The notes below the pieces were generated by a model. It worked only from the letters and a program-made list of their open reading frames with translations. It did not search any database and was not told where the DNA came from. A program made the translations under genes and the position numbers. Below are positions 715 to 8,265 of a stretch of DNA of 12,660 bases, piece by piece. Each line of letters opens with the position of its first letter. The first letter of the stretch is position 1. The DNA comes from a virus (taxonomy: Duplodnaviria > Heunggongvirae > Uroviricota > Caudoviricetes), in IMG/VR virus record IMGVR_UViG_2896601577_000006, one strand, 5' to 3'.

Positions 715-747
715 AAGCCCTCGCGTTGAGGGCTTTACTGATTTTTT
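715..747 (+). terminator. rho-independent terminator downstream of grxA (overlaps the ybjM stop codon)
   Basis: 8-bp stem AAGCCCTC / GAGGGCTT (715-722 / 728-735) with 5-nt loop, followed by T6 at 742-747. Confidence 0.45.
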
Positions 748-1094
748 CTGTGCTGTGGTTTAAACAAACTACTGATAAATAAGAAACACAGTGCCCCCAG
801 CGCACACCAGAACACCGCGCTTAGTAACCATGCCAGCTCTTGCCAGAATGAGCGCGTCGGTGAAAAAAACAGCCGCATAATGAGCATTGAACAGGGTGCC
901 GCCAGCATTGCGCCAAATAGAGGTTTCAGGACTTCTCTACGCTGTGAAAAGAAACTGGCAACTGCTCCAGGAAGAATGAAAAACAGCAAGCCGATTTCAG
1001 GATGCCCGGCAGCCCGAAAAGCGCCTTTCATGTGCGTCGCCAGAAAAAGGCACACCACAATGAAGAGGACAAAACAGCAGATTGCCCCGCCCAA
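735..1094 (-). CDS. ybjM: inner membrane protein YbjM
   Basis: 119-aa strongly hydrophobic ORF, convergent with grxA and divergent from ybjL as in K-12. Start is uncertain: the longest ORF begins at TTG 1094 with a TAA two codons upstream and no clear RBS; an internal ATG (codon 22) is an alternative. Confidence 0.7.
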   Translation of the reverse strand: MGGAICCFVLFIVVCLFLATHMKGAFRAAGHPEIGLLFFILPGAVASFFSQRREVLKPLFGAMLAAPCSMLIMRLFFSPTRSFWQELAWLLSAVFWCALGALCFLFISSLFKPQHRKNQ

Positions 1095-1380
1095 CGTTGT
1101 TTATGTTTCACTCGTTCCTCCTGACACTGCGTCTATCGAACACATTTTTCGCCAGTGTGGCGTTCAGTAAGATAAAGCCGCTTCGCATTCCATGCTAATA
1201 TAGGCCAACGCAATTCATATAGCCGTTGATACCTAATGTGATTACACTAGTAAAATATATTGTTACTTTACTATCGTTTAGGTGCGCTGAATGAATCTGC
1301 GCCCTGAATTCTGGTAAAAAACATTATCGTAAATTACCATTTCTTTCAACAGCTTACTAGTAAACAAGAAGTTAGCCTCC

Positions 1381-3610: not shown

Positions 3611-4711
3611 TCATTCCATTTCGAAATCATCAATCCTCACTTCAAGCTCCAGACTGGTCGTAAAACCGTTATCCGGGCTGACAGTATGCGTCAGAGTCGT
3701 AATGGTCCATTCCGCATCATCTATCGGCTGTTTAAAGCCACTGACCTTCACAGGCATTTCTGTGTAGAGATCTGCCCGCCCTTCCGCCAGTTGTAGCGAG
3801 AATGATGCAACGCCGCGTTGCAGGAGTTCCCACTGCATTTTCGCTGCCCGTTCGGCGTTGCTCCGGTTGGCATAAGTGCGATTAAGTACCAGCACGTTTT
3901 CATCCGTACCCACCAGGTAATCGCCCTGCTTCGCTTCCGGCTCTTTCTTCTGCTTCTTAGTCCTGCGCTTACGCTTCACCGTGGTGCTTTCTTTCTTCGC
4001 GGGTTCGCGGGTATGCAACCAGCTGGCAATGACGCCCGTGTAAGCTCCGCGATCTGCCAGGGTAAAGCGGTGACTGTCGCCGTCCTTGCGTGTGATAGTG
4101 ATCACCGGTAGTGGTTTACCGCTGGCGCTTTTACCCTGCCCCTGCCGGATGAATAACAGATTGCCATTTTTCACCGACGCAATAGCACCGTACTGGCGCG
4201 CCAGCCGCATCAAAAAACTGCCGTCACTCTCATTAGTCTGGTCTATATGCTCCACGAGTTTATCCGACAAGTCTTCACCCAATGCCATCTTCAGTTTGTG
4301 CCGCGCAGCTATTTCCTTCACCACTTCCCCAACGGTGGTCTTGTGCCACGACTTTTCACGGCGGGTATTCAGCGTTTCACGAAAATCAGCACTTCGCGCC
4401 CGGATAGTCAGGCGATCCGGTGCGCCAGTGTGTTCAATCTCGTCCACCGTGAATGCCCCTTTCGGGAAAAGCGGCTGTCCCTTCCAGCCCAGCGCCAGCG
4501 TAATGACAGCCCCACGGCGCGGCAGCACGATTTTTCCATCGGCGTCGTCCAGCTCCAGATCAAGCTGGTCCGCTTCAAAGCCCCGGTTATCCGTCAGCGT
4601 CAGCCCCATCAGGCGGTTGTCCAGCACAGTGGTGATATCCCTGCCTTCAATACTGATGCTGAATGCCGGAGTTTTGTTGCCTTTGTTAAGCAGTTCAGAG
4701 CTGAAATTCAC
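3611..4711 (-). CDS. D: P2 gpD-like tail protein (late control gene D family)
   Basis: 366-aa ORF at the P2 position between U and ogr; start ATG overlaps the U stop (ATGA). Confidence 0.9.
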   Translation of the reverse strand: MNFSSELLNKGNKTPAFSISIEGRDITTVLDNRLMGLTLTDNRGFEADQLDLELDDADGKIVLPRRGAVITLALGWKGQPLFPKGAFTVDEIEHTGAPDRLTIRARSADFRETLNTRREKSWHKTTVGEVVKEIAARHKLKMALGEDLSDKLVEHIDQTNESDGSFLMRLARQYGAIASVKNGNLLFIRQGQGKSASGKPLPVITITRKDGDSHRFTLADRGAYTGVIASWLHTREPAKKESTTVKRKRRTKKQKKEPEAKQGDYLVGTDENVLVLNRTYANRSNAERAAKMQWELLQRGVASFSLQLAEGRADLYTEMPVKVSGFKQPIDDAEWTITTLTHTVSPDNGFTTSLELEVRIDDFEME

Positions 4712-5193
4712 GACAGCAGCCCTCCCACCGTTTTACTGATATCGCTTAAGGCAGATGTTGCCGTTCCCTGCAGATTATTCAGTTGCGCACTGAGATCACC
4801 GAACATATCGGACAGGGATTCATCCACGCGTTTTAGCGACAGGGTGAACTCAATCCGGCGCGGCATACCGTCGCGGAAAAACTCCGTTTTAGTCTGATTC
4901 AGTCCCTCAATCACATACATGCCGTAAATCGTGCCGCTGCCTTCAATCAGGGGCCATGCTTTTCCCTGTTCTGCCATCTGCTCCAGAGCCAGCAACGACA
5001 GCCTGCCGCCCGTTACCTCCGGCATAAGAACACCAGAAAGCGTCAGCATGTCGTTGTCCGGTCCCAGAAACTGCGTTGACGGGCGTCGGTTTACCCGGCT
5101 GTTTGCCGCATGTCGCCAGCTGCGTTGATACTGCAGCTCCTGATACGGCACGGTGCGCAGCATAAACACGTACAATCCCAGCACCATCATCAT
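4708..5193 (-). CDS. U: P2 gpU-like tail protein
   Basis: 161-aa ORF beginning MMMVLGLYVFMLRTVPYQ, in the P2 gene order T-U-D; ATGA overlap with D. Confidence 0.9.
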   Translation of the reverse strand: MMMVLGLYVFMLRTVPYQELQYQRSWRHAANSRVNRRPSTQFLGPDNDMLTLSGVLMPEVTGGRLSLLALEQMAEQGKAWPLIEGSGTIYGMYVIEGLNQTKTEFFRDGMPRRIEFTLSLKRVDESLSDMFGDLSAQLNNLQGTATSALSDISKTVGGLLS

Positions 5194-7663
5194 GCGTCGT
5201 ATCCCCCTGATCGCTGTAGTTACTCCTGGCTTTTGCCTTCAGCCTGCGTTCACGTTCATCAAGCTGGCGGGCCACCTCCCGCGCAATATCCTGCGCACTT
5301 TGTCCTGGCTGCGTTTGAATGATGATCTGCATCGGTGCCTCAATCCGTTGAACGGGCGGCACAGTGGCTGCACGACTCACCATCGCTTCACCGCCTTTCG
5401 CGGGAAGTGCCAAAGGGTGCAACGGTGGAAGCTCTGCTGGCGTAGCAGCAACACCCATCATTCCGGCAACAACGGCAGCCAGTGCAGCTGTATTTCTCCG
5501 GCTGGTCACATTTGCCGGGCCGTTAACAATTTCCGGCCCGTTTTCACCGACGATGCCAAACTGCCCGCGCGGGATATACCCGCCGCTGTCATACATCCCC
5601 GCAAAGCCATATCCCCATGACGGAAAACCACCCGATGGCATCATCACTTTACCGTCTGCATTCACCGTCGCAGGTTGCTGACGCGTCACGCTTTCCGGCA
5701 GTTTCGCCTTTGCGGCCTCTTTACTGACAATGCCAAGTTTCTCCAGCAACCAGGAAACGCCGGATTTCAGGGAGTCCAGCGGATGCATGACCATATTCAG
5801 CCCTTCCGCCAGAGCCTCCCCGAATCGTCGCCCCATTGCCGCTGCACTCTGCAGTTCGGCAGAGGTCGACTTAACGGGCGTCAGCAGATCAGTAAACCAG
5901 CCCCACAGCGCCTGTACTTTGTCGCCAATCCACTGGAACACAGGCTTAAGCGGTTCGAACGCGGCACTGACAGGACCTGCCGCCGCTTTGAATCCTTCCA
6001 CCACGCCACCGAGAAATGCGGTGATGGGCTGCCAGTATTTCCAGACAACCAGCGCCACACCCGCCAGTGCAGTAACCACAAGACCTATCAGACTGAGCAG
6101 AGCACCTAACAGACCAGAGACGGCATACAGGGCAACGCGCAGCATCGCCAGTGGACCGGATGCGAGCATACGCAGCACCGTGCCTGTGGCAGCCAGTCCG
6201 CCGCGTAGTACCGCCAGTGGATTCATAAACATCACAGCAACCGCACGTAAACCGGATAATCCAGACCGCAAAAGTGCAACCGGCGCACCTGCTACAGTTT
6301 TCAGGACATTTCCCGTCAGTGATGCCGTGCGGCGCAAAGACGACAACGGCGCAGTAAGTAAACCTGCAGCGTTGCCCGATGAAGCAAGCCCGCGTCGCAG
6401 CAGTGCCAGTGGTGCGCCAGCCAGCCAGGACAACGCGTTGCTGGTTCGGGTTACTGCTGCCGTAACGGAAGGTAACGTTTTGATACCCAGCACAGAGAAT
6501 CCCAGACGGATGACTGCCAGCGGCCCCAGCACTGCAGCCAGCGCCACCGCTAAGGTGCCGAGGCCCACGGTAACGGCAGCTACCACAGCGGCTACTTTCA
6601 TCAGAGTGCCCGTCAGTTCCGGGTTAGCTTCCACCCAGCGACGCAACGCCCCCGTGACGCTTTTCACCGTGTACAGAATATCCATCAGCGGCTGGCGCAG
6701 CGTTTCCCCCAGGCTGCTGAAGGTGTTCTGTGCTCCGGTTTTGACCAGCAACCACTGAGCAGAAAGTGAATCCTTGTTGATGTCGGATTCTTTCTGCATG
6801 GAACCGAGCGCATCATTGCCCGCAGTCAGTTTTAACTGGCGCTGAAGTTCCGGCAGGTTGTTTGCCAGTTTCGCTGCGTCATCGCCAAACTCTTTACCAA
6901 ACAACATGGTCATGGCAGACAGGCGCTTATCCTGTGGCAGCGCATTCACCTTCTCCAGCACCCGCTGGATAGTTCCCATCGCATCCTTCGTCATCTGCTT
7001 TTCAATCACTTCTGGATTGAGTTTCAGCAGATTCATCCCTTCAAAGAAACTCTTGCTTTGCATGGTGGCAATGGACAATTCACGCACCATCGCGTTTGCT
7101 GCACTGGCTGCAACCTCAGGCGCAGCGCCGAGTGTCAGGAAGGTGGAACCCAGCGCCGCCGCTTTACGATAATCCAGACGGTCAGCCACACCGCCCAGGC
7201 GTTGCATGACATCAATGATGTCCGCCCCTTTCGACATGGCGTTATCATCCAGATAGTTCAGCGCATCACCGAGCTGCTCAATATTGCGGGTAGGGATTTT
7301 GTAGAGCTGGGCGATTTTCCCCAGACTTTCTGACAGTTCATCCGCTGGCAGTTCAAAGGCTGTTGCCGCCTTTGCCGCCGTGCTGGCGAAGGCCAGCAGG
7401 TCACGTTTCTGGTCTTCCCAGCTGTCGTCAGGGTTTGCGACGTTCATGCGCGCACCACCTTCAACCAGTGCGGCGAAGTCCACAGCACCGTTTTCCATCG
7501 GCAACTGTTCGCTGGCAGCCTTGATGGCACCCTGCATTTCGTAAAAACGCGCAGTGCGGTTGCCATTATCGTCACGCAGACCATTGACCTGCTTTGCCAC
7601 ACCTTTCATGGCATCTTCCATGCTGGTATAGCTTTTTACTGCCGCCATCACTGGTGCGCCCAT
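4943..7663 (-). CDS. T: tail tape-measure protein gpT, main/C-terminal reading frame (frameshifted gene; see findings)
   Basis: 906-aa ORF with hydrophobic Ala/Leu/Gly-rich internal repeats typical of tape-measure proteins. The frame is open upstream of the listed ATG to 7798, and at the 3' end it overlaps U by 251 nt. Confidence 0.8.
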   Translation of the reverse strand: MGAPVMAAVKSYTSMEDAMKGVAKQVNGLRDDNGNRTARFYEMQGAIKAASEQLPMENGAVDFAALVEGGARMNVANPDDSWEDQKRDLLAFASTAAKAATAFELPADELSESLGKIAQLYKIPTRNIEQLGDALNYLDDNAMSKGADIIDVMQRLGGVADRLDYRKAAALGSTFLTLGAAPEVAASAANAMVRELSIATMQSKSFFEGMNLLKLNPEVIEKQMTKDAMGTIQRVLEKVNALPQDKRLSAMTMLFGKEFGDDAAKLANNLPELQRQLKLTAGNDALGSMQKESDINKDSLSAQWLLVKTGAQNTFSSLGETLRQPLMDILYTVKSVTGALRRWVEANPELTGTLMKVAAVVAAVTVGLGTLAVALAAVLGPLAVIRLGFSVLGIKTLPSVTAAVTRTSNALSWLAGAPLALLRRGLASSGNAAGLLTAPLSSLRRTASLTGNVLKTVAGAPVALLRSGLSGLRAVAVMFMNPLAVLRGGLAATGTVLRMLASGPLAMLRVALYAVSGLLGALLSLIGLVVTALAGVALVVWKYWQPITAFLGGVVEGFKAAAGPVSAAFEPLKPVFQWIGDKVQALWGWFTDLLTPVKSTSAELQSAAAMGRRFGEALAEGLNMVMHPLDSLKSGVSWLLEKLGIVSKEAAKAKLPESVTRQQPATVNADGKVMMPSGGFPSWGYGFAGMYDSGGYIPRGQFGIVGENGPEIVNGPANVTSRRNTAALAAVVAGMMGVAATPAELPPLHPLALPAKGGEAMVSRAATVPPVQRIEAPMQIIIQTQPGQSAQDIAREVARQLDERERRLKAKARSNYSDQGDTTHDDGAGIVRVYAAHRAVSGAAVSTQLATCGKQPGKPTPVNAVSGTGQRHADAFWCSYAGGNGRQAVVAGSGADGRTGKSMAPD

Positions 7664-7713
7664 TGCCAGCCCTGCAGCCGTGGTGGTGGCTCCGGCACCT
7701 GCAATACGATCCC

Positions 7714-8265
7714 TTACCTCAAGACGCCTGGCGTAAGCCCCCGGGCGGCGTGCATTTTTCGCTGTTGCTCCCCGACACGTCGTAACCTCGCTTCCTGCTC
7801 AGAAAGCTGCCTGTTATAACGCATCGTTTCACGGGTAATGCGGGCCGTCGCACTGGCGCCATCATTAGCTGAAATACCAGCACGATAAAGTTCTGCACGC
7901 ACAAGCGCCGTCTGCTGCTGCAGCTTTTTCTGGCGTTCTTCCAGGCGCTGAACAGCCAGCCGTTGACGGCCCAGAGCAACAACCTGACGTTGCGAAGGCG
8001 GCCCCATCGCTCCCAGTTCCTGACTGAGCAAATTTGCACGCTGGCGGGCATAGTTCAGCCTGTCGCCTAATTTCTGATTTTCTGCCTGCAGCTTTCGGAA
8101 GCTGTCCAGACTGCTCCCGGCCTGATCAAGCTGCTTTATTGCATCGCGGGATTTTTTGACAGCAGCAGCCAGTTCTCTTGAACTGGCCTGCGCGGATCGA
8201 AATGGGCGGGTGAGTTTGTCAACCGCATTAAGAATCACCTGCAGACGCAGGTTATTGTCACTCAT
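7714..8265 (-). CDS. T: tail tape-measure protein gpT, N-terminal fragment
   Basis: 183-aa coiled-coil-like ORF (Q/R/E/A/L-rich) whose ATG overlaps the E' stop (ATGAGTGA) exactly as the T start does in P2-like phages. It ends at TAA 7714-7716 while the next frame stays open. Confidence 0.75.
   Translation of the reverse strand: MSDNNLRLQVILNAVDKLTRPFRSAQASSRELAAAVKKSRDAIKQLDQAGSSLDSFRKLQAENQKLGDRLNYARQRANLLSQELGAMGPPSQRQVVALGRQRLAVQRLEERQKKLQQQTALVRAELYRAGISANDGASATARITRETMRYNRQLSEQEARLRRVGEQQRKMHAARGLTPGVLR

Follow-up and report, generated by a model that had tools for sequence, protein, structure and literature searches.

The apparent T/U frameshift of a P2-like prophage remnant in a Shigella boydii chromosome is very probably a homopolymer error of the assembly

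The stretch of DNA analyzed here (12,660 nucleotides, hereafter the window) carries on its minus strand a tail-gene block from a P2-like prophage (Peduoviridae) that adjoins ybjL. The block comprises FI (9274-10446), FII (8749-9264), E together with E' (8392-8694 for E), T, U, D (3611-4711) and, at its end, ogr; beyond it the bacterial chromosome continues with ybjL, ybjM, grxA and ybjC. An IS1 copy (10494-11261) is found upstream of FI and abuts a split phage integrase and, since the genes that would extend from int to FI are gone, the prophage must be considered a remnant. The same operon that contains T and U carries the E/E' programmed frameshift site, T TTT TTG, at 8431-8437. The window is identical at 12660 of 12660 bases to CP026867.1 (GCA_002949895.1), a Shigella boydii chromosome, and its D and FI protein variants are labelled Shigella boydii in the source records.

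The gpT-like tape-measure gene occupies positions 5190-8265 on the minus strand (3076 nt as deposited) and its placement, between E/E' and U, matches that of P2 gpT in the FI-FII-E-E'-T-U-D-ogr tail block. In the deposited sequence it is divided into two open reading frames, one of 183 aa (7714-8265) and one of 906 aa (4943-7663), and no single uninterrupted T frame ending at the U start as ATGA is present in the window. The following gene, U (4708-5193, minus strand, 161 aa, ATG at 5193-5191), is an intact gpU-like tail gene whose product matches PF06995 (Phage_P2_GpU) over its full length (E=2.6e-44, profile positions 1-120 of 120). As stated in the preliminary description, which was made from the sequence itself, the T frame runs to 4943, i.e., 251 nt into U (5193-4943+1), and the coordinates listed for the open reading frames bear this out.

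The T extension (4943-5202, minus strand) consists of 87 codons and a stop and lies within a non-coding frame of U. Downstream of ...SNYSDQG it reads DTTHDDGAGIVRVYAAHRAVSGAAVSTQLATCGKQPGKPTPVNAVSGTGQRHADAFWCSYAGGNGRQAVVAGSGADGRTGKSMAPD before the stop and is rich in Gly, Ala and Arg. This composition had led to the proposal that the tail is out-of-frame translation; indeed, a Pfam scan of the tail (about 87-88 aa) matched no family and the length of the extension varies in relatives, in agreement with a spurious product. The third frame, in turn, reads LQRSGGYDA between a stop on one side and two on the other, that is, nine open codons followed by a tandem TGATGA at 5192-5187 that overlaps the U ATG, just as first described. 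The only homopolymer of at least five nucleotides in the T/U overlap stretch is a run of five G on the coding minus strand (C5 on the plus strand) at 5203-5207, a position at which relatives have six, and the absent base displaces the T frame 15 nt ahead of its true stop. When one G was added to this run in silico, T ended as ...SNYSDQGGYDA followed by a stop, as had been anticipated, and the T/U junction became an ATGA (5190-5193) in which the T stop, TGA at 5192-5190, overlaps the U start, ATG at 5193-5191. The complete run of six G codes for two Gly residues; it stops 9 nt before the U start codon, at Shine-Dalgarno distance, and may also constitute a putative ribosome-binding site for U.

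A second run in T is affected in the same manner. At 7738-7742 (minus strand) alignments reveal five G in the window and six in assemblies of the same clone and in E. coli relatives. The division of T and its apparent 251-nt overlap with U are both due to G5 taking the place of G6 at 7738-7742 and 5203-5207; indeed, one G added at each run yields an uninterrupted T of 3078 nt (1025 aa) that ends at the U start. The restored product is identical over its full length to the protein P0125, which corresponds to ACD09388.1 of S. boydii CDC 3083-94 and is found on 99 contigs. The frameshifted protein of 906 aa occurs on two contigs, CP026866.1 and CP026867.1, both of one accession block. The restored protein matches PF10145 (PhageMin_Tail) with 66.8 bits (cut-off 33.2), and this domain is also detected in the 906-aa frame.

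The junction of the restored window is that of annotated P2-type loci, represented by Klebsiella phage 4LV2017 (NC_047818), Escherichia phage 500465-1 (NC_049342) and the locus of ACD09388.1, which have the same FI-FII-E-E'-T-U-D-ogr order and a nucleotide identity to the window of 94-99.8%. They share with it, once restored, a T of 1025 aa, a U of 161 aa, the ATGA overlap and the G6 run placed 15 nt before the stop, whereas the window as deposited differs from them in having G5 at both T sites, a split T and the condition of an IS1-truncated remnant. In both phages and in E. coli prophages T is annotated as one gene of 3078 nt (1025 aa) that overlaps U by 4 nt, and the alignment of the T C-terminus and the T/U junction proposed at the outset accordingly recovered the G6 run and the short overlap. 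Both phages could be aligned over at least 6.5 kb, in which the window has two gaps only, each of them one G short of G6 (7738-7742 and 5203-5207). Both gaps reappear in the alignment with the closest E. coli loci (identity 99.6-99.8%), together with a third one, again a lacking G, in the G5 run of ybjM at 1085-1088.

A long T/U overlap with a conserved C-terminal extension in related phages, which would have spoken for a genuine feature, was therefore looked for and had to be rejected: the relatives stop T at the U ATG, the extension is variable, and the exact G5 version of the junction is present in 2 of the 1066 E. coli records that include this site. Both of these, the complete genomes LH10-b-1 and MS1665, have an otherwise degraded T. 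At the first site (7738-7742), G5 was found in none of 34 E. coli records. The frame of the extension closes after 37 codons in 4LV2017 and LH10-b-1 and after about 87-90 in others. Moreover, a homology search with the tail retrieved only sporadic fragments derived from the same slip (P0001, P0002, P0023, P0024 and P0057) and, as none of them covers the whole tail, extended T proteins do not form a family.

These observations bear on the idea that the G tract is a site of recoding or phase variation, at which ribosomal or transcriptional slippage or on-off switching would either produce T with its extension of 87 residues or modulate the coupling between T and U. The position of the run directly ahead of a coupled stop/start, the alternative frame that stays open for about 87-90 codons in many relatives, and the existence of a true programmed frameshift site (E/E', 8431-8437) within the same operon lend this idea some attraction. 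Nevertheless, 1064 of the 1066 E. coli records are without the G5 version, every relative aligned at the junction has G6 and a T that ends at the U start, the alternative frame is shut early in 4LV2017 and LH10-b-1, and the tail lacks a Pfam match. The comparison with E/E' itself is instructive: the -1 frameshift of P2 is likewise homopolymer-based and the relatives all retain its site and its extension, both of them annotated, whereas at the T/U run the shift is absent from them and the extension is not conserved, that is, the pairing of a shift site with an extended product that would be expected of a recoding site was not found among the relatives. Furthermore, six G are few for the tract of a contingency locus. 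Altogether, we regard recoding or phase variation at this junction as extremely improbable.

A more stringent comparison is provided by assemblies of the same clone. The window carries two private markers, the substitutions S70L in FI (at 10238) and R296L in D (at 3825), and an exact look-up of the FI and D proteins bearing them was used to retrieve draft and Logan assemblies, which we presume to derive from short reads given their contig sizes (5-150 kb) and which may come from clone-mates rather than from the same isolate, Shigella clones being separated by few SNPs. The FI marker is also present in QXHH01000011.1 and in the Logan assemblies DRR015929 and DRR015924, and these can be aligned over 15,061, 7,342 and 4,941 bp, respectively, with the window or with its source locus without a single substitution. 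QXHH01000011.1 differs only at the three G-run deficits (7738-7742, 5203-5207 and 1085-1088); DRR015929 spans, and differs only at, the two T sites; and DRR015924 spans, and differs only at, the first of them. Thus, each assembly with the FI marker carries the longer run at every deficit site within its span. Four more draft or Logan contigs, with the D marker and 1-3 SNPs away from the window, have G6, G6 and G5 at the three sites and intact genes for T (1025 aa), U (161 aa) and ybjM. The uninterrupted T that ends at the U start is therefore a reality in other assemblies of the clone, and not only a product of in silico correction. Among the eight draft and Logan contigs of the Shigella clade, the junction is G6 in all seven that reach it, DRR015924 ending earlier; no run-length polymorphism was seen among them at the junction, which also argues against phase variation.

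The third deficit lies outside the prophage. In chromosomal ybjM (minus strand) a run that is G5 in all comparators is G4 in the window (1085-1088), and the gene is called intact (125 aa) in loci L018, L019, L021-L024 and L026. As a conserved chromosomal gene is hit by the same kind of deficit, the pattern is not one of prophage decay, and decay was rejected as the main explanation, the more so as T is intact in the same clone.

A narrower form of this explanation deserves to be weighed, namely that replication slippage private to the strain contracted G6 to G5 in a defective P2-like remnant free from selection, so that T would be a real pseudogene. The state of the prophage favors it, as the interval from int to FI has been replaced by IS1, int is interrupted in a draft assembly as well, and the tail genes of such a truncated remnant are dispensable; G5 alleles in two E. 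coli genomes with a degraded T and the sporadic public proteins with the same slip point in the same direction. It would require, however, three independent contractions of one nucleotide in G runs together with no substitution at all over 15 kb relative to assemblies of the same clone, one of the contractions falling in chromosomal ybjM, and it has to face the 99 contigs with the intact allele against two with the frameshifted one.

The distribution of the short runs among assemblies also speaks against private slippage. Among 20 aligned loci, the junction reads G5 in the window (L020), in CP026866.1 (L008) and in L016, chromosome-scale assemblies that belong to three SNP-defined lineages and to one accession series, while their sister assemblies have G6; consequently, the short run tracks the assembly series and not the phylogeny. 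At the first T site, all chromosome-scale loci of the series, L008-L016 included, have G5. An exact look-up of the 183-aa T fragment retrieved a single Logan assembly besides chromosome-scale ones of CP0267xx-CP0268xx. This Logan assembly, L017 (ERR14938997, of unknown platform), contains further homopolymer indels, and the short run is absent in the other seven draft and Logan contigs. With junction G5 thus shared by three lineages and restricted to one assembly series, we consider private slippage an improbable account of the window.

The nature of the differences completes the picture. All three in the window are changes of one nucleotide in the length of a homopolymer (G6 to G5 twice, G5 to G4 once), and all other private deletions of one nucleotide in the sister assemblies fall within G/C runs of 3-5. 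In 17 kb of presumed true sequence, both of the two G/C runs of six and one of the five runs of five were shortened; none of the A/T runs, of up to 8, was shortened in the same 17 kb. Such a pattern is the signature of platform-linked homopolymer under-calling. Regarding the platform, CP026832, which belongs to the same accession block, is described in one paper (PMC10132075) as a PacBio sequence that goes back to Kim et al. (2018) and the '59 historical Shigella strains' project. A literature search for CP026867 gave no match; from the accession block and the description of CP026832, we infer that CP026867.1 comes from the same PacBio project. Gene-fragmenting indels are a known problem of long-read assemblies, in which homopolymer under-calls give rise to false pseudogenes (PMC12007338).

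The likeness of the window to long-read-only homopolymer indels is close: its deficits are deletions of one base that are limited to G/C homopolymers, draft and Logan assemblies of the clone do not share them, they recur among assemblies of one series whatever the lineage, and they also strike a conserved housekeeping gene. The difference resides in the run at 7738-7742, which is short throughout the series and is thereby more systematic than is usual for such errors.

Taken as a whole, this evidence makes us confident, at the level of sequence comparison, that the T/U "frameshift" arose as an error in the consensus of a single long-read assembly and is not a biological one. G/C homopolymers in CP026867.1 would have been under-called by one base, presumably during PacBio consensus calling, and the junction G6 located 15 nt before the T stop would in this way have been written as G5. 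The real T, of 1025 aa, most likely ends as ...SNYSDQGGYDA-TGA, with its stop overlapping the U start as ATGA, and the real locus would have the ordinary coupled stop/start of P2-like tail operons. The earlier proposal that both T lesions are deficits of one nucleotide in G runs of the coding strand is thus upheld as far as the run lengths are concerned (G6 to G5 in both cases); what probably does not stand is their status as lesions, since the clone has G6 in its other assemblies and the deficits are very probably errors of the assembly rather than changes in the DNA of the organism.

The T/U locus is almost certainly ordinary from a biological point of view, an IS1-truncated P2-like remnant with a common coupled junction rather than a new feature, and the main value of the case would reside in quality control of the deposited chromosome and its sister assemblies. 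In this region, under-calls of G/C homopolymers amount to about one per 5 kb; they break up real genes, T and ybjM, and give rise to false pseudogenes as well as false long gene overlaps. A census of pseudogenes, or a search for overlapping or recoded genes, in these Shigella assemblies should hence be preceded by a check against short reads.

Two features of the runs themselves do not sit easily with an artefact. The presence of G5 at the first T site throughout L008-L016 is far more regular than a random consensus error would lead one to expect, and G6 tracts are genuine slippage sites. G5 alleles of the junction are known from CP026867.1, CP026866.1, LH10-b-1, MS1665 and the sporadic proteins, and all of these could be assembled into a single account, in which the junction G6 would be a slippage hot spot that recurrently inactivates or remodels the T C-terminus and the T-U coupling in cryptic P2-like remnants, the window then being the record of a real event. 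We consider it unlikely that this is so, to much the same degree as slippage private to the strain.

At the T/U junction (window 5203-5207, minus strand), where the tape-measure gene T meets the following tail gene U, only two of 1066 E. coli complete-genome records carry the shortened run G5, namely those of LH10-b-1 (L006) and MS1665 (L007); these two G5 runs may be real or may be assembly errors. In both of them T is annotated as a degraded pseudogene, one carrying a gpM-T fusion produced by internal deletion and the other multiple frameshifts.

The first T lesion is of the same deficit type, a G6 run reduced to G5 at window 7738-7742 (minus strand). G5 is present there in all the chromosome-scale loci returned from the CP0267xx-CP0268xx accession series (L008-L016 and the window locus itself, L020), as well as in the Logan contig ERR14938997; it was not found in the remaining draft and Logan contigs, nor in any of 34 E. 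coli records. Consensus errors are seldom distributed so systematically.

The sister assemblies (L016, L013, L015, L010 and L012/L014) show other private losses of single nucleotides from G/C runs, which split FI, FII, E, D and T. Among them there is also a shared additional G near window 6268, and L010 lacks 4 nt at window 6425-6428; these two changes may be real. Moreover, the chromosomal gene ybjM (window 735-1111, minus strand) is frameshifted at codon 9 by the reduction of a G5 run to G4 at 1085-1088, whereas the sister assembly CP026866.1 and all the draft and Logan contigs that reach ybjM (L019, L021-L024 and L026) have the gene unbroken. About 4 kb past the right end of the window, an MFS transporter gene is called as two overlapping pieces of 70 and 321 aa (positions 3500-4628 of L025, the CP026867.1 locus), which may correspond either to another homopolymer indel or to a real Shigella pseudogene.

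In contrast to the T lesions, the split phage integrase (window 11452-12660, plus strand), with an N-terminal part of 207 aa and a catalytic part of 103 aa, appears to be a true pseudogene; gene calls on the draft contig AMKC01000167.1 (L019) divide it in the same way. The operon does have a true programmed -1 frameshift, that of E/E', where the canonical P2 slippery heptamer T TTT TTG lies close to the end of E (window 8431-8437, minus strand), and relatives are annotated with E' (39 aa, PF06528).

Between FI and the integrase end of the prophage stands a 768-bp IS1 copy (window 10494-11261). As IS1 joins FI straight to the integrase end, some 25 kb of the P2-like genome are missing, comprising the capsid, lysis, baseplate and fibre genes. 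This IS1-associated deletion is real, since draft contigs from the window's own clone terminate within the element; the prophage is more fully retained in sister lineages.
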